From: Balanoglossus misakiensis
Taxonomy: Eukaryota > Animalia > Hemichordata
Assembly: GCA_040954595.2 (NCBI GenBank)
Contig: CM082578.2
Coordinates: forward strand, 525,740 to 589,739
Direction of reading: 5' to 3'
Length of the DNA stretch: 64,000 nucleotides
A model generated the notes under the pieces. The model ran no database searches. It saw only the letters and a program-made list of their open reading frames with translations, and was not told the DNA's origin. The translations under genes and the position numbers were made by a program. This document shows positions 25,942 to 60,349 of this stretch, in pieces. How positions within the stretch are numbered: position 1 is the first letter of the stretch; each line of letters starts with the position of its first letter.

Positions 25942-26793
25942 TCAATAAACTATACCGTCAAAGTCTAATTTTCTTTTGGCAGTCTTCAGGTTCACCTCTG
26001 CTGGTTTTCCTGGGGCACCTTCAGTCGGGTCTGCTCTCGCTCTTGCTGGACATGGTCTCGTTCTCCCTTGGTCAGGCACGACCTCTCCGTTGATGAACTC
26101 GTTTCCACGCATGTAGTAGACTCGCTGGGTGACCACCTCGGTCGTCGGCTGGTCTCCGTTGAACCAACGAGTGGAGTAGGTTTCTACCACTCGATCGACG
26201 ACCTCGGCCGACAGGGTCAGAAGAGACCCTGACGGGAACCGCACGAGCCCACCAATTCGGCCATGGACTGTCAACTTTGGGTCGTATCGGCGCTGACCCT
26301 CTAGTGGAATGAGTCGCCATTCCTTCCGCAGGTGCGATTTACCTGTGGCGTCCACTTTTTCGCCAGTGAACAGGGGGCAATCTGTCGAATACAGATCGGC
26401 CAAAGGATCGACCCCCTCCATCCCGATTTCATCTTCTAAACAGCAAGGAGACGTTATACCCACGTCTGCAGTGCTGTTTCCGTCGCCAGCCCGTTGACGC
26501 TCTTTGGCATCGCCCACCTGCTTCATGGCATCCTCCGCCGGCTTCAATGTATTCCCCTCTTCACGGAGCGTCGGTACAGGGGGCTTTTTATCACCCGCCG
26601 TTTTCTTTAGTTTCTTGCCTCGCTGGCGCATTAAGTTGTCGGCCGTGCATACATGTCGAAAGACTTCGTAGGTGTGCTTGAATTTTCGATGGCAACCAGT
26701 GCACACCCTCCGCTGTTCCTCGTCAATTTCGTAGTCTCGCAAGGTCGGCACCGGTTTCGTGGTGATGCTTGAAGCTTTTCTTTGGCGAGGCAT
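25942..26793 (-). CDS. Extra Gypsy ORF3 (~283 aa from the ATG at 26793) with a zinc-finger-like motif; function unknown, not env-like
   Basis: Uninterrupted ORF between integrase and PPT; CTGCHRKFKHTYEVFRHVC motif; basic NLS-like ends; no evident signal peptide or TM segment. Confidence 0.65.
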   Translation of the reverse strand: MPRQRKASSITTKPVPTLRDYEIDEEQRRVCTGCHRKFKHTYEVFRHVCTADNLMRQRGKKLKKTAGDKKPPVPTLREEGNTLKPAEDAMKQVGDAKERQRAGDGNSTADVGITSPCCLEDEIGMEGVDPLADLYSTDCPLFTGEKVDATGKSHLRKEWRLIPLEGQRRYDPKLTVHGRIGGLVRFPSGSLLTLSAEVVDRVVETYSTRWFNGDQPTTEVVTQRVYYMRGNEFINGEVVPDQGRTRPCPARARADPTEGAPGKPAEVNLKTAKRKLDFDGIVY

Positions 26794-27239
26794 ACTGTAG
26801 AGATGTTGTCCTTCTGTTGGACGTGGACGCACTGCGGTAAAAACCACAGAGTACCCAGGGGTGACAAACGCGGCCAAAACTGCAACATTTTATCCTTTCG
26901 ATCACCAAAATTCGGCTCCGACTCGTGCCAATTAGCTAGACACACGTGGCTGCTAGCTTAATTACCCTGGCACAAGTTCGTCGCGTGGCAACAGGAAAAG
27001 TTGACGTCAGTTGACCTTGTTTCGGGATAGGAGCCGGCCTGGAGAAAGTACTTGAAGACTTTGAACAGCAAACAGACAAATGAAACACCGAAAGAGTGTG
27101 ATATGTATATATAATTTCTTTTTCATTTCTTTTTTTTTTATCTTTTTGGAAACTAATCAAATTGAAATTCATTCTGGTATATGCAAGCACAAGTGTGTCC
27201 CACACAGTACTAGCACCAGTAGTAGCAGTCACTGTCGTC

Positions 27240-30200
27240 TCACAGGTATATGTATCCACCAAGTCGTTCTGGCGGTTGTCGCTGTCGTCTTGGATACCGC
27301 TGACTCTGTGGGGATGACAGTGGGACGGACGTTTTTGGCACGTCTTCTTGATGTATATCGTCATATTTTGTAGCAGGCGAGAGGTCACCAACCTCAGGAT
27401 CGCCTTCATCGTAAGTCAAGTAACTATCAGCTGGGCCTTGTTTTGTGCAATCACTGGTGGCCGCCTCCAGTTGGCCTAGGTCACCTTCAATTTTGTCTTT
27501 GACTGTCTCACGCCAGTCAGTCGCTTGGGTGCCCTCGTAGGGTTTCAACCTGTCATAGTGTACAACTTTCGGTTTGGAGTATTGGCTGCGTTGTATGCGA
27601 AACGTAACTTCGCCCAATTTGTTGATTATGAGGTAGGGACCGTCCCATTGTCGGAGTGTGATCTTTTTCGACTTTCCTCGCTTGAATGCCTGGACTTTCA
27701 ACCAGACAAATTGGCCGGGCTGTAACTGGCCGCCATGCACATTGACTTCGTAATGACGTTCCTGGGAGATGGCACTTTTCTGAAGTTTGTCTCGTGCGTG
27801 CTCTTGGGCACATTGCAGTCTTTCCCGAAGTTTGAGTGCGTAGTCTGTATTTATATCCGCCTGCTCCGGCAACGGTTCGTGTGTCAAGTCGAGTGGCAGT
27901 TGTAACTCGCGACCCAACATGAGCATGTTCGGGGTCTCACCTGTACTTTCTTGCGTTGAGCTTCTATACGCCATCATAGCGTAGGGGATGACGAGGTCCC
28001 AGTCTTCTTGGCTTGGATCAACTAAAACTGATACTGTCTGTACGAGTGTCTTGTTAAAACGCTCTATGTAACCGTCGGACTTTGGGTTGTTTGGGGTCGT
28101 TCTCGTCTTGTTTATACCTAGCAGCTTGCACGTCTCGGTTACCACGGCTGACTCAAAGTTGCGCCCTTGATCAGAATGAAGGTGTCGGGGGATGCCGAAC
28201 CTGCAGATGAACTCGTCCACCAGTTGTTCTGCTACTGTTGTCGCCTCTTGGTTTGGAATGGGGTAGCATTCGATCCATTTAGTGAAATAGTCTCCCACTA
28301 CTAGTATCCAACGACTTTTTCGTTCCGTAACAGGGAGAGGTCAAAGGATGTCAAACGCGACTCTTTCCATGGGGGCACCTACTATATATTGCTGAATCGG
28401 CGCACGCCTTTTGCGACCACCGCCTTCCGGGATGCGCATGTGTCGCACTGTCGGACCATGGATCTGAGGTCGGCAGATAGTCCATACCAATAGTATCGCT
28501 GGCGAACTTTCTCACGGGTTTTGAAGACACCAAAGTGGCCTGCAGTTTTCGAAGAGTGAAGCTCTTCAAGAACATCCGGCTTTAGTGATGTGGGAAGTAT
28601 GAGCAGTAGGTGACTATCACTGATGCTTGTAGACTCCCAATTACGATACAAAACACCATTGCGTAGCCGCAGCTGATCCCACATATTCCAATATGCTTTA
28701 GTGGCTGGAGACCAAGATGACACTGTCTTCCAATCTGGTTTACCACCGTCTTGTTCGAGTGTTGTCAAGACGGGGCGGATGTTAGGATCGTGGAGTTGTT
28801 CTTGTCTAAGGAAGGCAGAGTCCCAGCACAGTTTGAAAGTCACCGTTTTGATCAGATGCTCAGTTGTTCTTTGCCTGGTGACCATCGCATTACCTCGTGT
28901 CGATGCTTGTGTGGAATCTGCTGTTTCATCGAGTGATTTTGGTAAAGTCATGTCGTCTGCATAGGTCTGGGTTCCTGCATCAATGGTTGTTTCCATCTGA
29001 CGACTTGTCGATGTACTGTTGGGGGTTTCGGTAGATGCACAGCTATTCAAGTAGGCACTTGCACCAGTCTGTGAACCATGCTTCAGTCCACACTGCTGAC
29101 AAGGGCGTCTGGATAGGCTGTCTGCATTCGTATGCTACTTTCCTGGACGGTGCTCAATTGTGAAGTCGTATTCACCGAGCACTTGCATCCACCGAGCGAG
29201 CTGTCCCTCCGGTTCCTTGAAGTTTAAAAGCCACCTCAAAGAACTGTGGTCTGTCCTGAGGGTGAAGTGCTGACCATACAGGTACGGCTTAAAGTGTTTG
29301 ACAAAGTGGACAACAGCCAGTAACTCTTTGCGTGTTACACAATAATTCCGTTCTGGCTTTGAGAGGCTTTTACTGGCATAGCACATCACTCGCTCCATAC
29401 CATCTTGGATCTGTGATAAAACTGCACCTATACCATAAAAAACTGGCGTCTGTATCAAGTATCATGGGTGCTCCGGGTAAAGGGTAGGCTAGTATAGGGG
29501 CGTTAGTCAAATTCTGTTTCAAGGTCTCAAAAGCCAAGTCACACTCGCTGTCCCACTCGAAATGTCTGCCCTTCGCTGTCAACTGAGTCAGTGGTTTGGA
29601 CACTGTGGAGAAGTTGGGCACAAAACGGCGATAGTAGGATGCTAAGCCGAGAAATCCACGCACTTCATGCACGTTGGTTGGGGGAGGCCAGTCACTGACG
29701 GCTTTTATCTTGTCTGGGCTGGTTTCGACGCCTTGTTCCGACACTGTATGTCCCAAGTATTCAACTTGGTGCTGAAAGAGGTGACATTTGCTGGGCTTGA
29801 GCTTCAGACCTGCACAACGTAGGCGATGAAAGACCGTCTCTAATCGTTGTAGCATCTGGTCTACTGTACAGGAATACACAATTATGTCGTCCAAATAGAG
29901 AAGCAGGATGTCCCACTGAAGTCCGGACAGCACATGTTCCATAAGTCGTTGGAATGTCGCTGGTGCATTGTACAGGCCAAAAGGCATGACCTTCCATTGG
30001 AAGAGCCCACCCCAGGTAGTGAAGGCTGACTTTTCAACCTGCCAGTATCCGCTCGTCAAGTCTAACGTGCTGAACCATCTTGCACCAGAAAGAGCATTGA
30101 TGCTGTCCTCTATCCGTGGAATGGCATAGGCATCTTTCCTGTTTATGTCATTCAGCCGGCGGTAGTCCACACAGAACCTGGTACTGTTGTCTCTCTTTTT

Positions 30201-31661
30201 CACAAGAACCACTGGTGCAGCCCAGGGACACTCCGTTGGTTCAATCACCCCCTTTTCCAACATCTCGTCGACGAGCTTCGCCGTTTCATTACGGGCCCAT
30301 GTCGACTGGCGTCTAGGTTGCTGTCGGATCGGTGGGTGATCTCCTGTGTAGATGCTATGCTGGGTTACGTTGGTGCGACCAACATCATTTTTGTCACAGG
30401 AAAATACGTCTTGCCATCGGTTAAGAAAATCAGACAACTTCTTGACATGGTCTCTGCCAACAGAAGCAATACTCTCGTCTAGCAAGGGTTGCAGATGTGT
30501 AGGCACCGCACTGACGGGTTCATCTGTTGCTTGATATTTGGAAGGGCAGAGGTTGTTGACATTTCGTGGTGGTTCGCTTAAGTCGACCATGGTGGCTAAA
30601 GCAATCGCTGTTCCCCTCAGAATGATTTGAGCATTCGGGCCAACATTCATAATGCGGACTGGCACATGTTTGTGGCGGACATCAATTAGTACTCTGCCAA
30701 CCATGACCCCTACAGTTGAAAGTTTACTTTGTGTGGTTGGTTCCACCTGTCCGAGCCGAGCTGGACCAAGTGGCCTGGACAATTTGCAAGTGACGAGCAG
30801 TTCATGGCCAGCCGGCACTGCGGTGTCTCTTGTTGCAATCACCCGAGCGCACAAGTGGCCACCTCTTCTGTCGATCAGTGGAACGCTTCCCTCGTGGAAC
30901 CCTAATGTCAATGAGTGAGTACGGATTTCGGCCGGGGCTGTAAGGATGTAATCATTGCCTAGCAATACATCCTCCTTAATGTCGGCAACAATCGCTCTTA
31001 TAGTAGTACTATTTGGGCCGACTCTGATGACGAAGTCGGCTTCTCCTCTGGCTGTGAGTGGTGTGACCCCGTCCGCCTGTACAGCGTCTATCGTGATGGG
31101 AAGTAGCTGAGGGCGGCTGCGTGGAGCCATAGCTTTGTAGACCCGATCGGAGATTATGGTTATTTCTGAACCACAGTCAATGAAAGAGACCACTGGTTTC
31201 TCATGAATCACTGCCGAGACATAGAAGGCTGATTTCGCTGGTTGCAATGTTGTATCATCAGCTGCAGTGTGTGTTGATAGTAAATCGGCATTAACCTGAT
31301 GTGGTGGGTCGGTTTTGTCAAAGTCTGATTTCATGTTACAATCAGGCTTCGGCGTCACAGTCCTGCCAGCGGGCAATGGCCCTTGGTTGACCACGCGTGC
31401 AGGGTAGAAGGCGTTCGCATTGTCCCGTACCTTACCCAAATCGGCCGGTTTCCCTTGCTGTTGGTTAGGTGGGAAAGGAACACGGGGTGCCTCCCCTGTC
31501 TGACATTTGCTGTTCACTGGCTGTATTTGGTCCCACCATTGCTTGGTGGTGGTTGTGTCACTCGTGGGTTGTGCTAGTTGGTGATGGCGGATGGGTTGTT
31601 GGACCCTTGGTTGTTCGTAGACTGGGAATTGGCCCACATGCCCAGTCTGTTGTCGTTTCCC
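27240..31661 (-). pseudogene. Gypsy pol (protease, RT, RNase H, integrase), disrupted
   Basis: FIDCGS protease; YLDD RT; DTDAS and TDHSSL RNase H; HHCC (H..GHFG..CDTC) and DDE integrase (DYFTKW, SDQGRNFES, IERFN). Frameshifts near 29440 and 28400, stop at 29135, short in-frame deletion at GYWQVE^KSAF. Confidence 0.93.
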
Positions 31662-33972
31662 GACGATTGGTTATGAGGGCAATGTCGGCGGATGTGGCCG
31701 GGTTGGCCGCATCCAAAGCATCTCGCTTGTCTGCTCCTTTCTTCTCGCTTTTTCTGTTCTCCACCCATTTGTAGCTGTAGCTTTTGCATAGCAGCTATGA
31801 GGGTTGGTATTGTAGTTAAGTCTTGGGGTGTTTCCATGCCAGTCAACCAAGCGTCGTTTTCATTATCTTCAAACTCGATGTGGCGTGTATATTGTCGCTT
31901 TTGACCAGACTTTTCTGCTTCTGCTTGGATGTAGGCTTCGATGGAGACTGCCGTCTGTATAGCTTCATCCATGCTTCGAGGCCGCTCTCGGTGCAAATCC
32001 ATCCGAATATCCGGATCAGGGATGGCTTCAGTAAAATACTGACGAGCCAGTCGATCTACAGCTTCTGCTGGTAGTTCCGGATACGCTAGCTCAGTAAGTT
32101 CCTGTATTACCTGCCCCAAGTCAGGTATGGATTCGTCTCTTCGTTTCTTACGACACCGTAATTGCCATAGATACTTTTCAGCTTGACCTGACGTCCCATA
32201 TCGCTGGTCTAATAACTTGACCAAAGTGCTATACTCAACTGCGGTGATGTTAGGGACCCGTGTTAGAACTTTCTGGGCTGATCCTAGTAGCGATGCTGCC
32301 AGAAACTGTGCCTTTTGATTGTCCTCCCACCTGTTGATTGTTGCACATGACTCAAAATGCTTCAAGTAATCTCTCCATTGCGTACGACCATCAAATCGAT
32401 CGGGCGTAATCGATGGTTTTGTAGGAAAGGTAAAACCCCTTTCTTCAAATTGCCTCCTGCCTACAAGGCGGGACTCCCGTTTCAAGGTCGGACGAGGTCG
32501 GTCTACTTGCCAGTATTCGGTGTGTTGACCTGGTCCCTTTTCGTCATAGAAGGTGCCGGCCAATTGTTGACTTTCTTCTCGTGGTCGCGTTTGTGATGTG
32601 CCTTTTCTATTTGCTTCAGTCGGTCGGACATCACCGTTGTCTGGAGGATGATGAAGGGAGTTGATAGCCCCGTTCATATGATGTTCCTGCCAGTTCTGAG
32701 GTTGACGTCCAATATGCTGTGATGGGAGGTACCTTGGAGGTGTGTTGGTTGGGCTGCAGTCTCTGTTTGGCGCGGTGACTCCCTGTCGCTGACCAGGTTG
32801 TAGCTGTCCACGTCTGTAGCCCGCGAAATCGTCCTCCCAAGAGTTCTCGGCGAAATGGGATGAATGGCCTGCCAACATTGTATGAGGTCGTCGTTCATCC
32901 GGTTGTAAAGAGGGGATATTTTTTTCCGTTCTTTCGTTTACAGGCAGGCGGCAACTACCTGTTGTTGGCCGTTCAAGGCGGCGTTTTTGCCCCCCGCTAA
33001 GAGCATACATTGGCTCCGTCGACCCTGTGTGGCGTTGTGGTTGGACGTCCACCACCTGGGACATATAGTATTTCTTGATGCGGCCGGACTGTTCCAACCA
33101 CGATCTGCTGTCCGACCATTTGTTGGTAATGCAGGTGTACGTGCAACATTGGCTGGTAGAGGGTATCGTTGTTCGGAAGGAAGACAGATTAAATTGGGGC
33201 CAAACAACTGTTGGTCAGAGTTTTCGTATGGTGTACTCTGAGTCCAAAGCTGTTCATGCCTACCTACATAGTGGTCTGCTTCTTCAAGAGAAAAGTGGGC
33301 GTTGTCGGCTTTTCTCTTTGGTCTGGCTCCCTGTTGAATTTGTCTATCACTCGCCGTTGGGATGTATAAGGCGTCGCGAACTGTTCCCCTTTGTTGCGCT
33401 GCAACTTGTTGATGATGAGTTCCGTCGTCCTCATAAAGTTGTTGCTCACTGAACGTTGCTTCCGAAACTGCGTGTCGAGTACGAGTTTGACTGCTTGTTT
33501 GATGTACGGGCATGTCGTCGCCCGTCGGCTGTGCAGCTTTTTCGGTTTCGTCTGTGTGAGACGTAGTTTCTTCGTGCGTCGGCGCCCTTGCGTCGTGGCT
33601 GACAACAGCACCCGTTGATTCTGTTCCAATAGGGACGTGACAATCAATGTCGGTCTCTATTTTAGGAGGTTGAATATCTCTGTCAAAGTCTGTTGCGTCG
33701 TTCTGCTGGCCCAGGCCTTTACGAATGCTGCCCTTGACCGCATCGAAAACCCACCTCAAGGTTCCCAACGGTCGGCGCCCTGGTGTGGAGAAATTGCCGG
33801 AGTCGTACCCGCTTTCTCGGTGTGGACTCTGGTCTGAGGCGGTCGGGGTTGCAGGTTGTTCCCGCGACGATTGTAACCTCGGTTGGAAGGAGATGACATC
33901 GTCGGTACTGTCGGTTGGAGGCTCGATGTCGGCCAACGTCTCTCCGGTCGCAATCTCCGTTGCCATTTCCAA
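31574..33972 (-). CDS. Gypsy gag with long low-complexity N-terminus, split into two overlapping frames near 33000
   Basis: PDRFDGRTQWRDYLKHFE...W capsid-like motif and CFGCGQPGHIRRHC zinc knuckle. Confidence 0.85.
31600..31661 (-). promoter_or_regulatory. -1 ribosomal frameshift signal (G GGA AAC) with downstream H-type pseudoknot
   Basis: Heptamer at 31661-31655 is in the gag frame and a -1 shift enters the pol frame. Stem AGACUGGG/CCCAGUCU; loop UGGGCC can pair with downstream GGUCCA. Confidence 0.8.
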
Positions 33973-34088
33973 TAAATCACGGTGTGGTAAACCGCAATGT
34001 GCGATGCGTTGTCCTACCAGACAACGAAATCTAGTTGCGTCTCTGTAATTACCTGAAGGAGGTTGAGGTTTCTCTCAGCACGACAATC

Positions 34089-44365: not shown

Positions 44366-46593
44366 TTGGCCGATTACATAGGTATGCATATTGAAGTAGG
44401 ATGTGTCCTGTTGAGAGACATGTAAATTTTTATGCGTGGATTTTGTTTGAGTATTTATGTGATTCACATAGTGATTGGCTGATTATACAGGTGTGCGTAG
44501 TTGTATGGGATTGTCCTATTGAGAGACATGTAATATTTGACGAGTGATGAATTATGTATGAATACTGGGCAAAGGTGTTTCAATGGGAAACATGTGATAT
44601 AGTAATGATTATTTGATTATGCAGTTGTGCATGTGTGAAATTTGTTTTCTTTCCGGATGTTTATTTGATGTTATTATTTCGATAGCCCTTAGGTATAGTC
44701 AGCTCACTAAATGCTGGCTTGCCTTAAAAAAAGGGCCTTGGGCCAGAGAGGAAAAAAATCTTGTTCATCAGATTTTTTGGACCAAGGTCCAGGAGCGGCG
44801 AGCGAATATTTTTATTTTTATTTATTTTTTAGGCTGAAAGTAAATGCGGTTCTCTGGCATATTTGCACAGATGCAGAAAAGGCGAGATAATTGTTTCCCT
44901 TTTTACCAGAAATATCTCAGACAAAATACACTGATACATGTACTTGTAACTGAATTCAATACTATATTTCCCAACAATAACATAGGCAATTAACTTTACA
45001 GTTGGTGTTTGCACAACATATTCTGGCCACCAGCGGCAGTGACTAAGGATGTTGTAACACGGAAATAGAATATTTGCCGAGATCCCCCCCCCCAAAAAAA
45101 AAAATTCCAAATCATCCAAAGTAGAAGCGGCGATTCCGATGAACAATTTATTTTTTCTTCCTGGCCTTGGGGGTTTAATTATAACCCCCTGGTTGTGTGT
45201 CTTATGCTACTGTTATTTTCTTTATCGACAAAATTATTGATAGTATTTTCTCCCGTGGTTTTTCTTCTTAGTCTCTTAACCCGATGTCTGGTATGAGTGC
45301 ATGGGAACGTAATGTGATTTTTGATCCAAGAGAGGCAATGAAAGACAGATTGCTTAGACAAGTTCGATGGACGGGATGGAAAGCCGGGCTCGAGTCTCCT
45401 CCCGTGCTGATATATGGCTGTGGGGTTGTTTTGTGTTGATGAGGTTTGGAGAGAAGGCATGAGAGAAGGGGTGATTATGAATCTAAAGAAGTATTATTTG
45501 GGGGGACCAGGGAGTCCTTGACCACTCCACTACTAAATCATACGAAAACATACTATGCATTGGGGATAAGGAACTATCTACACTGCGTAGTGATTGGTTG
45601 ATTGAATATGAATATTCATAAGATACCTATATATAATTGGAGTGCGCATACACCCAGGTGTCACATCACATCGAATGGTGCATGGAAAACTCCCGCCCAC
45701 CCACCCAAAATCACTGTACCGCGAGAAGTGGCAACCTGTTTTTCTTCCTCTCTGCGTAACACAAGGGTCCCCAACCAGGGGGTCCTTGACCTCTCCACTA
45801 CTAAATATATAATATTTAAAGCCTTATTACTTAGCTCAATGATATAGCCTATTCTTATAAGGAATGGGTAAGGGTATCTTTTTAATAGGCTAAACCATGC
45901 GCAAAATAGCGTTAACAAGCTTTAGGGAGGGAGGGAGGGTCAGGCTAAATAAAGTACCTCCACAACCCCACGCCTACCCCCAAATGTACGCGCTTCTACC
46001 GTTGTCTCTGAGTCTCCTCCGTTATCGAGTGACAAACTAAGTGTACCAATTATGTTGCCCTATTTATACTCATGCCTTATAAATATTTATGAGATGCGTA
46101 AAGATATCGCTGCGTAATGAGGCTTTGAATAATATAATATTTAAAGCCTTATTACTTAGCTCAATGATATAGCCTATTGTTATAAGGAATGGGTAAGGGT
46201 ATCTTTTTACCGTCCACATACTGCCTAAAGCGTAATAATTCTACCTAAACCATAAAACACACAACCCATACCTAAATCAATCAAAAACCTTTATTCAAAA
46301 TAATTCCCCCATTCCTCATAACAATAGAAACATTCCCAGCAATTAACATATGAGAACATCATTACATCCAAGGAATAAAAGTGGTAACCATACACATTCA
46401 AACTGAAAAATGGAGCAGATTCATCTCTAAAATAATCACATTGATATTTAATGAAACTAATAGAAATTCATAGCAGTCTCCAGACACAAAATATCAGATG
46501 AACAAACAAGTGGCAAATATTCACCCTATACTACAGGTACATTGTACAGTCAAATTACAAATCCAAATGTAACAGTTTTCACAGAAGAACCAG

Positions 46594-47892
46594 CTACTGA
46601 TAAAAGGCTGGTCTACAAGAAGTTACAATATTCTCCAAATTTTCATATTTAAGAGTAATATCATCACGAGTATCAATAGCATCTATTAACCTAGAAGCAG
46701 GAGCCTCTGCTTTTCCAACCTTATGGAGCTGCATATAGTGGTTTGCAGTCTTTTCTGATCTCCAACCAACATGGTCCATGAGATCTGAGATCTGTGAACC
46801 TGCCAATGCTAAAATTATTGCACATGCACTCCTAAAGCTGTGAGGAGTTTCACCTTGGTCAATATTTAACACTTGCAAATATGTTTTCAGACGTTGGTAA
46901 ATAGCTTGCGAGGATATGGGTTTTTGCACAACTTGACCACATGGGGTTGTTGGACGAAAAAGATAACCAAACCGTAAATCTATATCAAAACTTCTCGCTA
47001 ACTTAATGTATTCCTCTATCGTACTCACGGCGCATAACGTCTTGTCATTACAACGCTTTATTGTGAATAAATTACTCTGTTCACCTCTTAAAGATTTACC
47101 AAAAGTATGATTAAATATGAAACCAGAATTATCTGGCAACCTTAAGATTTCCTGAGTTTTGATCTGGCCAAGATCTCCTGCCCTATCTCCGGACATCATT
47201 AATACCTTAAATATGGTAATATCTTTAGCATAGACGTATGCTTCAACACGTGAAGTGCTAGACACTAGTTTACTTAAAATGTAATCTAGAAGGATCCTTA
47301 TCTTATTAGTAAAAATCGGCTTGGCCTGTTTAGGAGTTATATGTGCTTTGGCCTGCTCTTCACCGGATTTCTTAATATATCTGTCAACCAAGGTAGAAGC
47401 GATTGGGTTTGTCTTACATAAACCCAGATTTAGCATCACCCCATAAAAGGACTTTAATTTAGCAGCTATATTTTTTAAGGTGCCTAAACGTAGACGTTTA
47501 GGACATTCACACTGATCAAACTTTCTGGTAACACTACCCAGGAACGGACATGTATTTATATGAACCTGAGTTCGAGCATGTTTGTCTTTATGGATAAGAA
47601 ATCTGACAATATCTACTGGCATCGCTTGAGTAAGGTCTTTAGGCTGAGGGAGTCCACTTAAGAAAGATTCCAAATTTTGTACCAATTTGTCTTTCTGGAT
47701 TTCATAAGCTGATTTTGAACCCAGTAGATCATTCATTCGAGCATCGACGATATCAAGATCAACCTGAGTGCGCCCCCTCTCGGACGGATAAGGAACTGAG
47801 CTGACTACTTTGGCTGAGCAAATATGGCACTGTTTTTTGTCCTCTTGACCAGGAGAATTGCAGAGTAACTGAGTACCACATAACCAACATTC
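46594..47892 (-). CDS. Zn-ribbon + tyrosine recombinase exon
   Basis: Frame opens right after ttcattAG at 47893: ECWLCG...QCHIC, then YR with GDRAGDL, TPHSFR, HVGW, NHY. First Met (47736) lies downstream of the Cys motif. Confidence 0.9.
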   Translation of the reverse strand, partial: ECWLCGTQLLCNSPGQEDKKQCHICSAKVVSSVPYPSERGRTQVDLDIVDARMNDLLGSKSAYEIQKDKLVQNLESFLSGLPQPKDLTQAMPVDIVRFLIHKDKHARTQVHINTCPFLGSVTRKFDQCECPKRLRLGTLKNIAAKLKSFYGVMLNLGLCKTNPIASTLVDRYIKKSGEEQAKAHITPKQAKPIFTNKIRILLDYILSKLVSSTSRVEAYVYAKDITIFKVLMMSGDRAGDLGQIKTQEILRLPDNSGFIFNHTFGKSLRGEQSNLFTIKRCNDKTLCAVSTIEEYIKLARSFDIDLRFGYLFRPTTPCGQVVQKPISSQAIYQRLKTYLQVLNIDQGETPHSFRSACAIILALAGSQISDLMDHVGWRSEKTANHYMQLHKVGKAEAPASRLIDAIDTRDDITLKYENLENIVTSCRPAFYQ

Positions 47893-47979: not shown

Positions 47980-50900
47980 CTAACTGCCAAAAGTTGCTGC
48001 AAATAACTTTCCTTTAGTTTTCGCGTGAACATAGCCATTTTTTGATGGGACAAGAATGAAATTATCCTCTCCTTTAGACGCAACTTGCACACAGACTGAT
48101 CCATGTTTCTTAACTAATGGCCACCATAAAGGCGTAAAATTGTGGACTTCTAATAGAACAGTGGCTGATAAACCTTCCGAAATTACATGTCTCACCACTG
48201 GCAATTGCAAGCATACAGGGGGAAATATGAACAACCTATCGGCTTCTTGAAACGTATGTGCAAAGAAATTGACCCCTTCACAATTAGGTTGGGGATAAGG
48301 AGCTACGAAACGAGACAATTTTGCGTTGGAACATATGGCCATCGCATCTACATCATATGGACCAAACTGATCATTTATTCTCTGCCAAGCCGTACTAGTA
48401 AGGGTGGTGTCATTTTCGTTTACATTTCTCGATACATAGTCAGCAAGATTGGCTGCTGATCTAACATGGGATAAATTCAACCATACATTTCGTTCTACAG
48501 CTACGTGAAATATATTCTTGAGGATCTGATTGAGTTTTAATGACTTTGAACCAGGAGAACCATTATTCCACGCTTGTACTAATACAAGTGAATCTACAGC
48601 CACATCTAATCGTAGATTATCTATTTTATCTCCAAGAGCTAACAAAGTGCGGTGTTATTACGGCCGCCCGTCGTCCTCCGGACGTTCACCTCCTTCGGAC
48701 GCTTCTGTGGGGAATCAGCCACGTCCGAAGGCTGACGGCGTACATTCTCTCCATCTCCTTCTCCACCCAACATATTCATAAAGTCCGAGAGAGGTACCCG
48801 GCAGATCGTAAACCTTTCGTAGACAGAGACTTACAACAAGTTCTCCGAGTAACACAAAGTTCTGGTTTATTACTGGTCACACGTAAGAATTACACGACTC
48901 GATCCATGCTCGTTGACTCCCATCACGGATCTCCCGTTATAATAGTGTGATCTCAAATTTCACCACACCTTATTAATACGTTAGTCAAGTATTAAGTCAT
49001 AAAAGGAACACGTCATCTTAATATTTCTTAAACATGAACTTAGCGCGTGATATCTCTATCTCGTTCTGACATGTATCAATTACACAATCTTGTTTACTCT
49101 GGGTCAAGTACCTATGTCAATACTGGACTAAAACCATACAAGTGAATGACTTCTTACTTAATCATAAACAAGATCTATGATCGTTAAAACTCAATCGTGA
49201 CACTTCCCACTTTTCCAATAATCGAACTTCCACGTTCGATCAAAGAAAGAATGAAAACGAAAACCAGGTCTGCGCAATCGGTTTTAAATAAACTACGTCA
49301 AAATCAAACTCAATAATCACCTTTAAAATATCACAGCCTGTTCAAACAAATTGAAGAAAATCTCATAAAACGTTTTCAATGTCAAAATTCAAAACGACTT
49401 CACTGTTCTGACTTCTCGTCAAAGAGTGTCTCTTTTCCAGTGCAAAATTCAACAGTCAATAACCGCGTAAAAAAATCAAGTCTGATAGTTCTTGTGTACA
49501 AACATAATACACTTCATCATACTGTCACCTCCAAAAATAACCACGACAATGGAAACGAATTCTTATGTGAAAGGATGCGTAAAACTACAATAAAATCAAC
49601 TACACTCTGGGACTTCTCTCTTGTCCCTCGTATGAACTCACATGCCAACTCAAGGGGCCATTTTCATACGCCAGACCGTCTCCCTTGCGGTCATCAAAAC
49701 ATCACGACTTCATCACCAGACCGTCTCTCTTGCGGTCATCACAAAAACTTCAACAACTCCTCAAAAACCTATAAAACTTCACTACACTTCACGGCATCAC
49801 TTCAACAAAAGAATACACATTTACAATGTCGAAAACAAGGCAAAAACTTGGTGGAAAACAATATCAAATCAAAAGCGGTTAAATAACGGTCAGTCAACTC
49901 ACGTCTACTAACTCACGTCAGAGTAGACAAAGAAAATACGATCACGCAATATTTCAATGATCAAATCTCCCAAACTATAGATTAAAAAGGCTGATTATTC
50001 AGTTCAATATCATTCTATCACAGTTCTTTTGCGATAGCAGACGATTCAAGAGTCTTCCCTTCTTCATTCCACGAGACCTCTTTTCTTCGTCGCCCGAACT
50101 GCTTCAACTACATGCTTCTGGATACGACGCCCCTCTGATCAAACAACAGATCCATCGTTGAAAACCCGTCCACGCATTCCATGCAGTCAACAGTCAGCAC
50201 CAACCTTTTTTCTGTTCTCGTTTCCTTCTGAAGCAGACCATTGGATCGTCAGTTTCGCCAGCTTTTTCTCTTCTTATTTCTTTCTCGGTTCAGGAATCAG
50301 TTGCAACATCTCTGCCTACCCGGAATCTAACACCATGTTGTTACGGCCGACCGTCCTCCCTCGGACGTTCACCTCCTTCGGACGCTTCTGCGGGAAATCA
50401 GCCATGTCCGAAGGTTGACGGCGTAACTTCTCTCCATCTCCTTCTCCACCCAACATATTCATAAAGTCCGAGAGAGGTACCCGGCAGATCGTAAACCTTT
50501 CGTAGACAGAGACTTACAACAAGTTCTCCGAGTAACACAAAGTTCTGGTTTATTACTGGTCACACGTAAGAATTACACGACTCGATCCATGCTCGTTGAC
50601 TCCCATCACGGATCTCCCGTTATAATAGTGTGATCTCAAATTTCACCACACCTTATTAATACGTTAGTCAAGTATTAAGTCATAAAAGGAACACGTCATC
50701 TTAATATTTCTTAAACATGAACTTAGCGCGTGATATCTCTATCTCGTTCTGACATGTATCAATTACACAATCTTGTTTACTCTGGGTCAAGTAGCTATGT
50801 CAATACTGGACTAAAACCATACAAGTGAATGACTTCTTACTTAATCATAAACAAGATCTATGATCGTTAAAACTCAATCGTGACAGCGGTGTAGAGCTTC

Positions 50901-52396
50901 TGCTTCTTTTACGTTTATAGACTCATTCCGGAATGAATCCTCCCAGAAATCGCTTATTTCAACTGACATACTCTCGTTAACGGTGGTATCGGGATGTAAA
51001 ACAGCCCCCCATTTATAAGCGCTAGCATCTGTAAACAATTTAAGAGCATAGTGTCTTTCTTTAAGCCATTTGAACGGACCTGCATTAACAATTATGTTTT
51101 GCCATTCCCTTAGCTCCTCTGCTAACTCTTGCCTTATTGGGACAAGAAATGTTGCTTTTCCCTGAGCTTTTGACACCGATAGAGCCATTTGACGAATGTA
51201 TAATCTTGCAGATGGAATTGCAAGCGCGAAAGACATACACTTCCCCATAACTTTTTGAATCAGAGGGAGAGGGACTGCCCGTTTACTAAGAATATCATTC
51301 GTTAATTCCAAAAATCTATCAATCTTAATCTGTGGAACAATGAACGCCTCTAAAGGCGAGTCGACCTGCATACCTAACATAACTAAAGACTTAACGGGTG
51401 TTAGGATACTTTTCTGTAACGCTAAGAAATAACCCGCCAGTACACAAATAGAGGCTAATATAAAAGCTGAAGCTTCTGCGCGTTCAAAAGGAGACAATTT
51501 CCTTTCTAACCGGTCGTGACATACCAGTAAAGGTCCCACATGGCGATCGTCAATATATTGGATACATGGAACCCCAAGCTTTCTAGCATAACTAGTGACG
51601 GCGTAACCAACAGTATGATAAACATAAGCTGAAAGCTTCCACCCAAACGGCAAAGTATTACACACAAACCAAACTCCCCCCATTGAAAACCAAAGTATGT
51701 TCTATCCGGTTCATATACAAGAATGTGGTCATAACCACTTTTATCATCACACTTGACTTGATAGTCATCTTTGTGCAGGTAACGACTAACATCAACCGAC
51801 TTGTCGAGCTTGAACGGAATATCTTGAATCCATAGATTTAAGTACCTCATGTCTATACACATCCTTGGCTTCTTGGGCTCAACAACGATTGGCATCACAA
51901 CATGAGGAGGAGGATCACGACCGACAATACCCCAAACCGAAACAGCACCTGTTTTTAATCGGTCAGCTATCGTCTTTGCTATAAATGGAGCAAAATCCTT
52001 GTTGCTAGGGGGATTGTTAAACTGTCTAGGAGGAGGCAGATCATGGAAAAACTGTTGTCCTTTAAAACCTCCTGAGAAATGGCGTAGATATGGAGACACT
52101 TTCACACCATTCGAAATCCAAGACATGATTTCATGTTTATTTACCAGATCCATCGTAAGCTCATTCCATGCATCTGGGTATTTGTGCAGCTCGCCAGCAA
52201 TAAACTGATCTGGGTTTCTGAATGACATTTCACTAAGAGATACTTTTCTCAAACCATTGGAGACCAAAGATAACACTTCGAACATGTTACCATCAGGAGC
52301 CTGTCCGGGGGTGCCCCCAAGCGTTGTCCAATCATACGAAGTTTTTGGAAGTAGCTTGATATTGACAGGATTCTTTAACTCCCAAACTTGAACAAT
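47980..52396 (-). pseudogene. pol exon: RT, RNase H and Dam-like MTase; frameshift at ~51680 and interrupted by an LTR element at 48653-50885
   Basis: KPRMCID, DDKSGYDH, LPFGW, YIDD, FTDAS, INVKEAEAL; removing the insertion and one TSD restores EALHRTLLALG; MTase VDAMA and FIFPP. Confidence 0.9.
48653..50885 (-). mobile_element. Non-autonomous LTR retrotransposon (two 550-bp LTRs, 1.13-kb non-coding interior)
   Basis: LTRs 48653-49202 and 50336-50885, TG...CA ends, TSD GCGG; PPT GGAAAAGTGGGAAG next to 49203; TGGTGTTAGA PBS-like start at 50335. Confidence 0.93.
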
Positions 52397-52675
52397 CTAA
52401 TGAGGAACAAACAGAAACTAGGGCTATAATATAAACCAACAGTGCATTCTAGATAACATAAGGGGACACCCCCGGACAGGACCATGCGAAAGGCCGGCCT
52501 GCAAAATGCAGAGGGCACAGAGAGTGGCCCCCCTATCCGGGAGTTTATTGAACTATGAAAAATGGACTACTTTAAAGGTGAGCACATTATAAGCAAGAAT
52601 ACCCAAGACAAAACAAACACATTCATCATGCTAAACCCTTGTTTTATTATGCAAACATCAAACGTTATGAGACAA

Positions 52676-52717
<42 letters not shown>

Positions 52718-52832: not shown

Positions 52833-54614
52833 CTACTTCTTATCTGGACAATTTCTGGCTATATGACCTTTGTTTCCACAAACGTAACACTTAATGTCTC
52901 TTCCTCTGCCTTGAGGGCATTGAAATTGATAAGGACGAGAATAACTGCGCGTGTTCTTTAGAAATTTGCCCACTTTTGACGCGATTTCTTCTTCCTCTTT
53001 GTTGCCAAGTAGAAGGAGGACTAACTTTCCCGCGTCACTCCCAAAATCATTACTCTCAAATTGTGCTAGCACAGCTCTGAAACGTTGAAGTTTCGAGTGA
53101 TTCACCAAGGTAGCCCTGTCTACCAACACTCTCAGGGCATTGATGATAGCGTATCTCGATGCGCCAGAATGTGCCATATCCATAACTTTTTGCAGAGCTT
53201 CATCGACATTCGCAGAGTCTGCCGCTTTCTGTAGCTTTTCCACTTTTTCTTCCAATTGTTTCAAAGCACACGCCACTGGCATCTGAAAAATAGTGCATAA
53301 ATTATTTCAACACGTGAGCAAGCATAACACTTCTTTTCATTTTAAAGTTATGCAATTACCCTTCTTAGCACCATTTTCACTAAACAAGACCACTTGTTGC
53401 ATACCTCAGCGTATGCAAATTTTACAAAGCAAGACCACTTGTTGCATACCTCAACGTATGCAAAATTTTACAAAGCGAGACTACTTGTTGCATACCTCAA
53501 CGTATGCAAAATTTTACAAAGCAAGACCACTTGTTGCATACCTCAGCGTATGCAAATTTTACACGGCAAGACCACATGTTGCATACCTCAGCGTATGCAA
53601 ATTTTCACAAAGCAAGACCACTTGTTGCATGCCTCAGCGTATGCAAATTTTCACAAAACAAGACCACTTGTTGCATACCTCGGCGTATGCAAATTTTCAC
53701 AGAGCAAGATCACCTGTTGCATACCTCAACGTATGCAAATTTTACAAAGCAAGACCGCTAGTTGCGTCCCTCAACGTAAGCAAAATTACAGTTTAAAAAA
53801 AAAGTAAAAATAGAGGGAAATAAAGATGGTGTCCCTGTAACGCTGAGCAAAAACCGTAACTTCGCACAGGTGAACAAAGACATAACTAAGGAAAGGAAAA
53901 AACTACTAACAAAAAGTATAAAACGCTAATCTACAACACCTAAAAGCACATGTAACAAGCCGCTATATAACAACCACATGTATACAAAAAACAAAAGAGA
54001 AAACTGAATGAAAAGGAAAAGGAAAAAATAAGAATACGACAAGACAGAATACAAAGGTATGCTACAAAATAATTACTAACAAGAAAATAAAATAAAACAG
54101 GCGCTAAGGAGAATTGCAAAATCGAAAAATTTTCAAACTTATCGCACACACCAATGGAACAAAGAGAGAGAAAAAAAAATGAAACAACGTACACAGAACG
54201 ACTACGATCGAATTAAAAAACCAAAAAGTTCAAAAACTGAAAACTCATGTTCTCAACGAAGATAACAAATAACCGTGTCTCAACGTAACCCCAGAAACAT
54301 TGAAACTTGGCCGACCGCATATGCACGATAAAAAGGGGTAACTCGACAATCAGGCAATGTAAAACTTGAACAGAATGAAAGAAACACATGATATTGAGTC
54401 TCACCTGAGATTCAGATTCTTTAGAGGTTGTTTCAGTAACTACTACAGGTGTAGGAACTTGTGCGCTGGTAGAAGGGTTTTGAGCCGGAGTCCTCACAGC
54501 ACCAGGATTGTCTTGAGTCGATACCTGAGTAGCAGCATTACCAGAAATTGAAGGACGGGACAAAGCCGAAGCAAAAGACCTGGTTGCATCTGCTACAGTG
54601 TTAGGACGATCCAT
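52833..54614 (-). CDS. Spliced gag: leader exon 54614-54405 (70 aa) + exon 53282-52833 (149 aa, CCHC knuckle)
   Basis: Donor CAG|GTGAGA at 54405/54404, acceptor TTTTTCAG|ATG at 53283/53282, phase 0; CYVCGNKGHIARNC. Confidence 0.78.
53385..53790. repeat. ~45-bp tandem repeat, ~9 copies, inside the retrotransposon intron
   Basis: CAAGACCACTTGTTGCATACCTCAGCGTATGCAAATTTTACAAAG units at 53385, 53430, ... Confidence 0.95.
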
Positions 54615-54653
54615 TCTGTCGTGTTACTGTTTCTCCTCCGTTATCGAGTGACA

Positions 54654-54687
54654 AACTAAGTGTACCAATTATGTTGCCCTATTTATA
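54654..54687 (-). promoter_or_regulatory. TATA box and initiator in repeat A1
   Basis: TATAAATAG (54687-54679) and TTAGTT (54659-54654) about 28 nt apart, ~40 nt upstream of the leader ATG. Confidence 0.6.
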
Positions 54688-55676
54688 CTCATGCCTTATA
54701 AATATTTATGAGATGCGTAAAGATATCGCTGCGTAATGAGGCTTTGAATACATACGAAAACATACTACGCAGTGGGGATAAGGAACCAATTATCTTTGTC
54801 TGTGGTATTACTGGCATTTTTTAGGGCCCAAGCGCACGCTAATTACACTTCGCACCGTAAATGATTTCGTCTGAGGTGACAACCCATTTATGCAGCCGGT
54901 CTCCACAGCCCAATTAGCCAGGGACATTTTGGGACATATGCGATAGATTTGTCCTTTTTCAACTGTTCCGGCAGAGATTATTGGGAATTCTCCCTTGATG
55001 TGCCGAATAATTTTCTCAATTGGCCAAAAATTTGGAAGGTCAACATAACAACAGCCTTCCTCATTGCTTCAAACTCTGGCTTCAGGTTGTAAAGCCGAAA
55101 CATAGCATTGCTATGCGAATTTCGTAAATATAGTTAGCTCTATAATACAATGAGAGGACCATTGCATCCACCGGTAGCACAAACATAATTGACATCTTGT
55201 CCTGAAAATAGTGCTGTCTGACGATTTCCCTTTCCAGCGTACCAGTCAGACCAAGTTAGCACTGGCCGGACTGGCTTACCTTTTTGTATTTTTATTTACT
55301 GTTGGGTTCAATAGAGAGAACAATCACGAGAATTAGTTTAATGAGGACAAACCAGGATTTCACATGTATTTTAGATTTTATTTTATTTGAAATACTATTG
55401 CTTCACCCTTATCTCGTCCCCCATTTAATTTTTAATGTACTTACCATTATTTTGTTAACTTAAATGATTTTGATCTGAGAAAGGGACGTATACGTAATTA
55501 CCATACATTATGTATTGCTACGCTCTCTGACATTGGGGCAAGAAGCAGATGTGTGTGCTGTATTCAACTGCAGACATCCTGGAAGCAAAACTCTGTGAAC
55601 CCGTGGTGTTTACGAAAATAACATGTATTTACATCAAGGCTTGATAAGAAAGATGACATTAAAATATGTAATAGAC

Positions 55677-57987: not shown

Positions 57988-60349
57988 GTATATATATCGT
58001 ATGACTAACGAGGCGACATCCATAATATCAACCGAGGACGAAGTCCGAGGTTGATATTATGGATGACGCCGAAGTAGTCATACGATATTTAACATACACA
58101 ACGAGTGAAAGGTGCAGGCCCCTCTACAAGTAAACACCCCTCAACCGACAATACAGTGTTTAAAAATCTTTTGTATGGACCCTAAGCGGTTGATATCAGC
58201 CTAACTTTCAAAATGGTATGGTCCTACTTACGGAAAGTATTTAATTATTCAGCGTTTTGCACCTGGGATGCATATATTGCCTAGTTCAACCAATTATTGT
58301 TTAGTAATAAGCTCACATGCAATGTTTCTTCCAATTGTATTGGCTGTGCATGTTTTACACATGCACAATGGCATATCTTATAATATAAATGCACGGCCAC
58401 GAGGCACAATTTCTTTCTACCTGAACGTGTCATAGTGGCAGCATGGCGCATGAGGTGTATCCCGATTTTTCTGATATCTCTGATGAAGAGTTAATTGAAG
58501 CCTCACAAGCAGCAGAATATTTGAACGAGCTTGGCTTCGAAAATATCGATATAGCAGTCAGGAGCATTCCTTCGGTGAGTCACGAATTCTTTTATTCATT
58601 CCGCCATTTTCACCTTTTTATCGTGTACGTTGTCGTTGAACATGCAAGTAAGAATGTATATTGAATCATTTTTTATTTCGTTAAAGGACATTCCCAGAGG
58701 GCGGTTTGCTGACCCAGTGTCGGATTCCTGCGTACAGGGGGTTGCAAAAAATTCCATTCCCAAGAATACTCAACGCCGTAATATGTGGGCGCTACGGACT
58801 TTCAACGAATGGGCCATGGCCCGAAATAATACTCGCGTCGAGTCGTCAACTGATGAGAAAGTGAAGATAACTCGTAGTATAGAAACGATGTCCACAGACG
58901 ATTTGCAGTATTGGCTTAGCAAGTTTGTACTGGAGGCGAGGAAAGTCGACGGACACCCCTACCCACCAAAAACTGTACTCTCATTGATAATGGGCTTGCA
59001 AAGTTATGTATGTTTCGAAAGACAAACCCGGACAAACTTTCTTGCCGACCAAGAATTTGTTGGTTTCCGTCAGGTTCTTGATGCAGAGATGAAGAGACTG
59101 TCTAGCATTGGTATCGGAACAAACAAGAAACAGGCTGAGGCAATATCTACTGAGCAAATCGATTTACTGTGGAAAATGAAACTACCAGGCGACCATTCCC
59201 CCAGGGTTCTTGTCCGCACAATGGTATTCTTGAATGGGAAACATTTTGCCCTCAGAAGTGGACAGGAACACCGTGCGCTTCGCTTTGACCCACCTCAGAT
59301 TACTTTGCGTGAACCTGATGGCGACACTCCGTATCTGCTATACGTGGAAGACGTGTCAAAAAGCAACCAAGGTGGACTAAAACACATGAAAGTTCGTCGA
59401 AAGGAAGTGAAACATTATGCAAATACTGATAATCCAGCGAGATGTCATGTTCGGCTATATAAAAAATACGTTTCGCTGTGTCCACCAAATGCGAACAAGA
59501 GTACGTTCTACTTGCAACCCTTGCGAAAATACGAAGAATCGTCGAAGGTGTGGTTCAGCAAACAGGCTATGGGCCACAACTCCCTGCAACCTGTGGTACC
59601 TGAACTATTTAGAGCAGCTGGGATAAATGGTCACTTTACCAATCACGGCCTGAGAGCTACAGCTGCTACGAGCCTTTTCCAAAACGGAGTTGATGAACAG
59701 TAAATTATGGAACGCACAGGACATCGTTCTGTAGAAGGCGAGTACATGTATCTCCTTTTTTCAAAACAGTTTTAAAAAGTAAATGCACTTTATGATCTCT
59801 TGATTTACTGATTTATTGTTTACATTTCAAGGTGTTCGTAATTACAAGCGTTCGAGTCAGGAACAACAGAAGAGGGTGATTGACATCTTAAATGGTCCAG
59901 CTGCAACCAAAAGCCATCGCGAAACCCCAATTAAAAGTGATAATACCGACGTCAAACAACATGAAATCTCCAGCAACGTCAAGTCCAATGTGGTTTACAA
60001 CAACTGTATATTCCATATTCAAAAATAGAAATTGAATGTAATTGAATAAATATTAAGATGTTTAAATGTTACATTTTGTAGTTTTGTCTGCATTTTTATT
60101 TGGAGATAGGTCGTGATATTGTCTCGAGGCGTAGCCGAGAGTCAATATCACGACCGTACCGCCAAATATTCATTTTCGAGGCATGATGGCTGAAATATCA
60201 CGAGACGAAGTCGAGTGAAATTTCTGCTATCATGCCGAGAGTTCAATAGGTTGATATCACCCCACCCCAAAAATATCACCTCAAAATGAGGTTGCTCTCT
60301 AAAATTTCAACCGCTAAATCTATTGTACTATCTGTGACGAGTTGTGTAT
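57988..60349 (+). mobile_element. Crypton DNA transposon (DUF3504/KCTD1-ZMYM-QRICH1-like YR) with terminal hairpins
   Basis: Absent from the paralogous empty site ATTTTAC|TAACAGTTC at ~57015-57030; GTAT at both ends; long hairpins at 57994-58088 and 60109-60240. Confidence 0.88.
58443..60028 (+). pseudogene. Crypton tyrosine recombinase, three exons (58443-58574, 58687-59737, 59832-60028), premature TAA at 59701
   Basis: IPKNT...WA...F..W, FVLEARKVDG.PYPP, FALRSGQEH, SKSNQGG, FTNHGLRAT, GHRSVEG|VRNYKR. Exon phases are compatible; second donor is GC. Confidence 0.87.

Follow-up and report, generated by a model that had tools for sequence, protein, structure and literature searches.

The tyrosine-recombinase retrotransposon and its predicted mRNAs

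Judged by its sequence, the element on the minus strand of the window (the whole 64-kb stretch of DNA analysed here) is an ALOG-type split-direct-repeat tyrosine-recombinase (YR) retrotransposon; the features of this element described below lie on that strand. Repeat comparison placed its termini in the order A1 ... B1 A2 B2, with A1 at 54622–54750 and, within 45807–46209, B1 (46209–46132), A2 (46131–46003) and B2 (45884–45807). Exon 1, which runs from the ATG to a shared phase-0 donor (54405–54614), was taken from RefSeq protein models. The gag exon with its zinc knuckle (52833–53282; Pfam and reading frame) follows a phase-0 acceptor, as does the exon of the ALOG-domain tyrosine recombinase (46594–47892; Pfam and gene models), and pol (47980–52396) encodes RT, RNase H and a Dam-like methylase. 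The gene order is gag, RT-RNase H, methylase, then ALOG plus tyrosine recombinase. Pfam matches were obtained for ALOG (E 1.6e-17), Phage_integrase (E 1.4e-11) and zf-CCHC (E 1.4e-6), while those for RVT_1, RNase H and Dam in pol were weak and under the curated cut-offs. The nearest annotated proteins are Ptychodera flava RefSeq models with 96–100% identity, which makes an acorn-worm host likely, and an ALOG-like match was found in 47 of the 85 related loci. The pol of this copy is broken by a frameshift near 51680 and by a 2.2-kb LTR-element insertion at 48653–50885. The inserted element has 550-nt LTRs that are 97.8% alike, TG...CA ends and a 4-bp target duplication, and it splits the RNase H region.

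Several repeats accompany the element. An 18-bp imperfect inverted repeat with a 6-nt spacer (46114–46155) spans the B1/A2 junction; we take its layout to be like that of tyrosine-recombinase crossover sites, and it may be the recombination site of the element. A second long sense-strand stem of 21 bp, with two G-U pairs and a loop of 114, is formed by minus-strand 46328–46308 with 46193–46173. It joins sequence downstream of YR to B1, from which B2 differs by one base within the pairing. Intron 1 holds a 46-bp tandem array at 53373–53787, and several relatives (L059 at 1–300, L072, L025 and L031) have tandem arrays of unrelated sequence ahead of gag. Repeats of 33–36 nt (45506–45574, 45774–45806 and 54751–54786) connect the sequence immediately outside both element ends and, on their sequence, may record the insertion target.

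The same gag zinc knuckle, RT-RNase H, methylase and zinc ribbon-ALOG-YR, together with direct terminal repeats and marine invertebrate hosts, characterize the ALOG-containing DIRS1-type retroposons of Iyer and Aravind 2012, as given in excerpts of PMC3537659. The letters "splic" are absent from the main text, RNA structure is unmentioned in the excerpts, and neither the splicing from one leader nor the module reported below is described there. Taking the definition of PAT-like elements (split direct repeats) from an excerpt of PMC9210276, the split repeats and the weak methylase match point to a PAT-like element, the tree made here being one without reference elements.

The splice joints of the element come from eight RefSeq gene models of its family and not from reads. 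The Gag, Pol and YR mRNAs are predicted to be spliced from one leader exon to three phase-0 acceptors. Exon 1 (54614–54405) is joined to 52396 in five of the eight protein models, and in seven of the eight a longer stretch of the same exon leads from 52145 to the YR acceptor at 47892. The exon 52145–52396 would therefore be common to pol and, through the donor after 52145, to the modelled YR mRNAs (P0057, P0062–P0065, P0067 and P0068). Since this donor inside pol (52144–52145) is used by the YR models of the family, 84 residues from the Pol N-terminus would be part of YR. The donor is not conserved in the other families examined, and a conserved internal pol donor was rejected on that account. 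Four runs of presumed RNA, assembled as contigs, yielded no splice joint; these runs may be DNA and hence give no evidence on splicing. Between the gag stop and the region of the stem are two AATAAA signals (52648–52643 and 52549–52544, within 52544–52648), at which the gag mRNA is predicted to end. A 36-nt sense-strand A run (52679–52714) lies between the gag stop and these signals.

A conserved stem around the pol acceptor

The first-pass annotation had described a sense-strand stem enclosing the pol splice acceptor, and its description of arms, loop and AG holds. Arm X (52462–52480, intronic) pairs with arm Y (52300–52318, in the pol exon) at 19 of 19 positions, of which 15 are G-C and one is G-U, around a loop of 143 nt. 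The perfect run of the plus-strand version ends at 14 bp because the G-U wobble is a mismatch there, as had also been pointed out. Folding, which had been suggested as a check, gave a z of −3.2 for the 291-nt stem region, and none of 200 shuffles was equally stable. The pyrimidine tract and AG of the pol acceptor (52397–52420, with the AG at 52398–52397) are in frame with pol, whose exon starts at 52396 in phase 0; they lie in the X:Y loop, outside the stem, and it is this AG that is joined to exon 1 in the five gene models. Protein comparison extended the Pol homology to 52384–52411, so that the 3′ arm Y is coding; it lies inside the codons for L-G-G-T-P-G-Q. As the window has other repeat-borne inverted repeats of 17–46 bp, some of which match or exceed the stem in length, the case against chance is built on conservation and not on length.

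Of 85 related loci fetched, 69 were anchored and 59 had 330 nt upstream; these formed 38 clusters, or 39 with the window. Absence from the relatives, which the first-pass annotation had named as contrary to its reading, was not what we found. A stem of different sequence at the equivalent place scored at least 32, a threshold chosen after the scores were seen, in 35 of the 39 clusters (34 of 38 without the window), with a median of 46. The same score was reached by 2 of 111 slid windows, 5 of 195 other-exon windows and 109 of 1482 cross-family pairs, whose medians were 21–24. The stem at pol was absent from four of the 39 clusters, and these were excluded from the junction, acceptor and energy counts (n = 35). 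In the relatives arm Y mostly ends 63–97 nt short of a conserved arginine codon, with X situated ahead of the acceptor. The sense strand outscored its reverse complement in 29 clusters and lost in 7, with 3 ties, which points to RNA.

Covariation across the family copies, the other check that had been proposed, was scored on a sequence-only alignment of 16 rows (A3). Two-sided, compensatory change was found in 20 of the 28 X:Y pairs, and none of 500 shuffles was as high; slid controls on the same alignment were 38–46% paired. The cross-clade MAFFT junction alignments had lost register and did not enter the pair counts. Another alignment (A5) was dropped for two misplaced rows, a third (A4) had register slips between families and was unscored, and a fourth (A8), which was fitted to a model and includes two reverse-strand rows, leans towards structure. 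The covariation on A3 and the excess of sense-strand scores support selection on the stem as sense-strand RNA.

In contigs of genomic runs, a core of about 40 nt (52460–52499) that holds X is common to other repeat families of the same genome. One contig of another family has both arms, with two differences in each and 139 unlike letters between them. Same-family contigs showed no substitution in 52280–52560, but they are too close to inform, with 16 positions substituted over 1776 nt. Viral contigs contained no relatives and no copy of the motif. Five of the related loci (L081–L085) place a eukaryotic, apparently spliced retrotransposon inside bacterial metagenome-assembled genomes; these are likely host DNA that was assigned to the bacterial bins.

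In 25 of the 35 clusters pol comes after a phase-0 YAG with at least 14 pyrimidines in 20, and YR comes after a phase-0 YAG in 23 of 25 hits in relatives. In most families the stem is tied to one of the three acceptors, that of pol. In the window the gag and YR acceptors had stem scores of 20 and 21, against 54 at pol. No stem was found at the YR acceptors of those 25 hits (scores 18–27) or at 11 other gag acceptors (scores 20–30), the latter excluding the two loci described below.

A predicted junction that shares the intronic arm, and its likely relocation

The stem is half of a larger module. X also has an upstream partner, with which it closes a compact junction; the helices with both partners are conserved and covary, and two mutually exclusive folds are predicted. 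The partner in the upstream pairing is a third arm, X′ (52544–52532), which competes for X and which the first-pass annotation had overlooked. It is a degenerate copy of Y. In fold A the first 13 nt of X pair with X′ in helix P1 and close the junction, and in fold B all 19 nt of X pair with Y. The junction is predicted to contain hairpins H1 (52512–52531) and H2 (52499–52511) and, as an extra branch of the window's lineage, H3 (52481–52498), which makes it four-way instead of three-way. The H3 sequence is common to several families in the same genome, and loose ends from other families have an H2 with a different stem sequence and a U-rich loop. The predicted probability of P1 in the window was 0.99 until Y is made and 0 thereafter, when that of X:Y was 0.99.

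With a fixed one-fold test the compact junction was found in 29 of the 35 clusters, compared with 62 of 700 shuffles, 11 of 167 slid windows and 11 of 35 reverse complements. X:Y was present in the lowest-energy fold of 33 of the 35. On the sequence-only alignment P1 had two-sided change in 8 of 11 pairs, and H1 and H2 had weak covariation. A CUNA motif lay at the apex of H1 in 20 of the 29 junctions; shuffles gave 6.1, and H2 had the motif in 2 of 29. It is missing from the H1 loop of the window and of eight other junctions. A covariance model of the junction of one clade matched 31 sense-strand places in 31 different loci, at most one per locus, and gave no hit in the window. No Rfam match was found at the module in the window or in 12 loci. 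There was no invariant junction column across clades, in cross-clade alignments that were out of register. X′ and Y are alike as partners of X, and this pair of similar arms likely arose when one of them was duplicated.

A poly(A) signal lies ahead of the junction, mostly 70–145 nt upstream of it, in 22 of 31 cases where 3.6 were expected by shuffle; the opposite strand also has hexamers in 14 of the 31. The gag mRNA would thus likely end just upstream of the module.

We tried several identities for the junction. Loop-loop kissing was rejected, as no complementarity was found (p 0.51). A scanning or distal branch point at the CUNA loop was also rejected, since there was no exclusion of AG downstream (70 seen, 81 expected); a proximal yUnAy was present in 18 of 23. 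HDV-like ribozymes have a catalytic core with a nested pseudoknot and hammerheads a CUGANGA/GAAA core. Neither identity fitted, as the module had no Rfam hit and these cores were absent by eye from the aligned junctions. One feature of riboswitches, a P1 strand that serves both an upstream junction and a downstream alternative helix, was found, computationally only.

In two loci (L059 and L067) the junction, X, an acceptor-free loop and Y all lie inside intron 1 before gag. About 40 nt separate the end of the module from the gag AG downstream, and the intron in whose 3′ end it sits is longer than 1 kb. The pol acceptors of these loci have no stem (scores 21–22). Between the two loci both arms are identical at 23 of 23 positions, while the loop agrees at 64 of 100 and gag at 239 of 309. 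Other stems upstream in the loci were tandem arrays or weak, and all were without a junction. In a midpoint-rooted tree of moderate support, from which L036 was left out as too short, the two form a clade (support 100/100) whose sister group (91/92, short of the starred level) consists of families that have the module at pol. This position suggests that the move to the gag intron is likely derived; it concerns one family on two metagenome contigs, one of them with a broken gag. Arm Y of these loci has a non-ATG triplet where the relatives with the module at pol have ATG, despite a mismatch in the stem, which possibly reflects selection against an upstream start codon.

Possible functions of the predicted two-fold module

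The reading that we favour, tentatively and a little short of an even call, is that the conserved module, with its two predicted folds, marks unspliced full-length retrotransposon RNA for a genome fate. Folding predicts that fold A would form first, with P1 closing H1, H2 and, in the window, H3. Once transcribed, Y would displace X′ through a short toehold and fold B would take over, leaving X′ free beside H1 and H2. With Gag, Pol and YR mRNAs probably spliced from one leader exon, and the gag mRNA likely ending at the upstream poly(A) signal, only unspliced read-through RNA would carry the module; this predicted restriction to intron-containing genomic RNA follows from the gene models and from position. 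Fold B or the H1 loop would then bind a protein of the element or a host factor, and the bound factor would putatively hold the RNA back from splicing and route it to export, packaging or Pol loading.

What leads us to a genome mark is the relocated module. A device that sets how much Pol is made would not be expected to outlast a transfer to the gag acceptor in which pol loses its stem, whereas a signal needed once per genome can do so. The first-pass annotation had proposed that the stem tunes use of the pol acceptor and so sets the Gag:Pol:YR ratios. The tie to pol in most families, and the absence of the stem at YR and gag, agree with that proposal, but in L059 and L067 the module encloses no acceptor and pol is stemless. 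These two loci weaken a role in the Gag:Pol ratio and favour a once-per-element signal limited to unspliced read-through RNA. As to the two outcomes offered earlier, control of Pol in the manner of frameshifting or protection of unspliced genomic RNA, the pair appears to fit the second better. Against a genome mark, the relocated module still ends about 40 nt before an acceptor, which is also compatible with local splice control.

Such local control would make the module a splice timer. The neighbouring acceptor would be usable in fold A and damped in fold B, with a purine-rich exonic enhancer in Y masked and Pol kept low. We consider this somewhat unlikely, and yet it stays a strong rival because the module always adjoins an acceptor and Y is purine-rich (0.61 against 0.49 in the remaining exon, in 20 of 25, p 3e-4). 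The phase-0 YAG, where present, was within the loop in 25 of 25 clusters, although this is partly forced by the search ranges, and the lack of a stem at the YR and the other gag acceptors is as a timer would have it. Human exons looped out by long-range pairs are less included, according to an excerpt of PMC8052449. However, the AG and tract are never within the stem, and their predicted unpaired fraction in the window falls from 0.63 to 0.49 and then to 0.40, mostly before Y is made. In L059 and L067, moreover, Y is intronic and made before the AG, and the loss of the pol stem would invert the Gag:Pol setting. A rather unlikely alternative is a riboswitch-like switch, in which the junction binds Gag, Pol or some other ligand and the balance between P1 and X:Y shifts accordingly, so that the element senses the level of its own protein and passes from spliced mRNA to genome. 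Riboswitches, such as the eukaryotic TPP riboswitches that control splicing, likewise have a junction closed by a P1 whose 3′ strand can also enter an alternative helix further downstream, close to a splice site, but the junction nucleotides here are poorly conserved and match nothing in Rfam. It is quite improbable, in our view, that the branch-point-like CUNA loop of H1 serves as a decoy that traps the shared donor in a dead-end complex and blocks all three splices, like the negative regulator of splicing of RSV. The enrichment of CUNA at the H1 apex and the finding that it is not a scanning branch point would suit a decoy, which would also function from either position of the module; only four letters are in common, however, nine junctions including that of the window are without them, and two partners for X would be left unexplained.

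Other readings fared worse. Control of the 3′ end, in which a junction downstream of the gag poly(A) site would resist nucleases or cleave itself and so govern read-through into pol, would agree with the poly(A) signals found ahead of the junction. It seems very unlikely, given that the window and the 12 loci had no Rfam ribozyme or xrRNA match, that the HDV-like and hammerhead cores do not fit by eye and loop-loop complementarity is lacking, and that the relocated module sits before gag and not after its poly(A) site. We give still less credence to an editing substrate, with X causing the Pol N-terminus to be recoded by A-to-I editing, or the RNA to be kept in the nucleus once edited. Intron-exon duplexes of 30–40 bp do occur in several families, and editing is enriched in conserved long-range pairs of human genes (excerpt of PMC8052449). 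But an exonic A is opposite C in just 5 of 59 mismatches, U-U being the commonest (18), with no A:C excess to suggest an ADAR signature; non-Watson-Crick positions are spread evenly over codon positions, and Y is noncoding in L059 and L067. The idea that the arms match by chance, or that they are the end repeats of a small DNA element that had inserted here, is largely refuted and has next to no probability left. The other inverted repeats of the window speak for it; against it stands position-fixed covariation across families far above the controls. No target duplication was found at the flanks of the arms, and Y lies inside conserved pol coding sequence with its frame conserved through the arm, on which grounds a MITE identity was also discarded.

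By analogy, the module would work like known retroviral RNA elements and be built like known RNA switches, while being a member of none on the tests run. According to excerpts of PMC9143442, the negative regulator of splicing of RSV and the constitutive transport element of MPMV are likewise cis-acting RNAs, needed once per genome, through which intron-containing RNA escapes splicing or is exported. The former is a decoy 5′ splice site and the latter a hairpin binding NXF1, whereas the module here is a junction whose closing strand has a second partner. It would work in a manner like that of retroviral packaging elements (PMC3082916). In the foamy virus Pol encapsidation sequences and HBV epsilon (PMC3705302, in part), a Pol made, as it would be here, from its own mRNA and not as Gag-Pol is loaded via an element of the genome RNA. 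The foamy virus sequences lie inside pol coding sequence, while the present module is largely intronic, and a leader peptide common to all three proteins here might act in assembly instead. The docking site and selector pairings of mutually exclusive exons (PMC6071210, in part) have the same design of one strand (X) with two similar competing partners (X′ and Y). They differ in that the module has no array of alternative exons, and that one partner closes a local junction while the other is usually exonic. For Ty1/Copia, splicing and an internal 3′ end of a Gag-only RNA likewise replace frameshifting and give an excess of Gag (PMC5580714, in part); these are LTR elements with one intron, and the abstract names no competing structure. 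No description of the module was found in the literature covered, including passages of PMC7192593 and PMC12477816; subscription papers, Repbase notes and the supplement of PMC3537659 could bear on this.

The literature examined does not explain how tyrosine-recombinase retrotransposons set a genome copy aside, or how they load a Pol made separately from Gag. A compact, strongly covarying and movable module of about 100 nt plus a helix of 20–40 bp offers a direct handle, which can be broken and restored. Although the proteins have diverged deeply and the paired sequence itself has been replaced, the intron-exon pairing has persisted, and it has shaped the Pol N-terminus. Should the switch indeed respond to a protein or to a ligand, it would rank as a rare case of riboswitch-like regulation among animals.

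The window contains other mobile elements. A second YR retroelement lies on the plus strand at 188–2852, with a perfect 46-bp inverted repeat (2522–2567 and 2807–2852) after its YR frame, which presumably represents a DIRS1-like end. We take 25942–34074 to be an LTR-retrotransposon-like gag-pol region, and 58579–59703 to be a solo tyrosine-recombinase-like frame that resembles Crypton genes.
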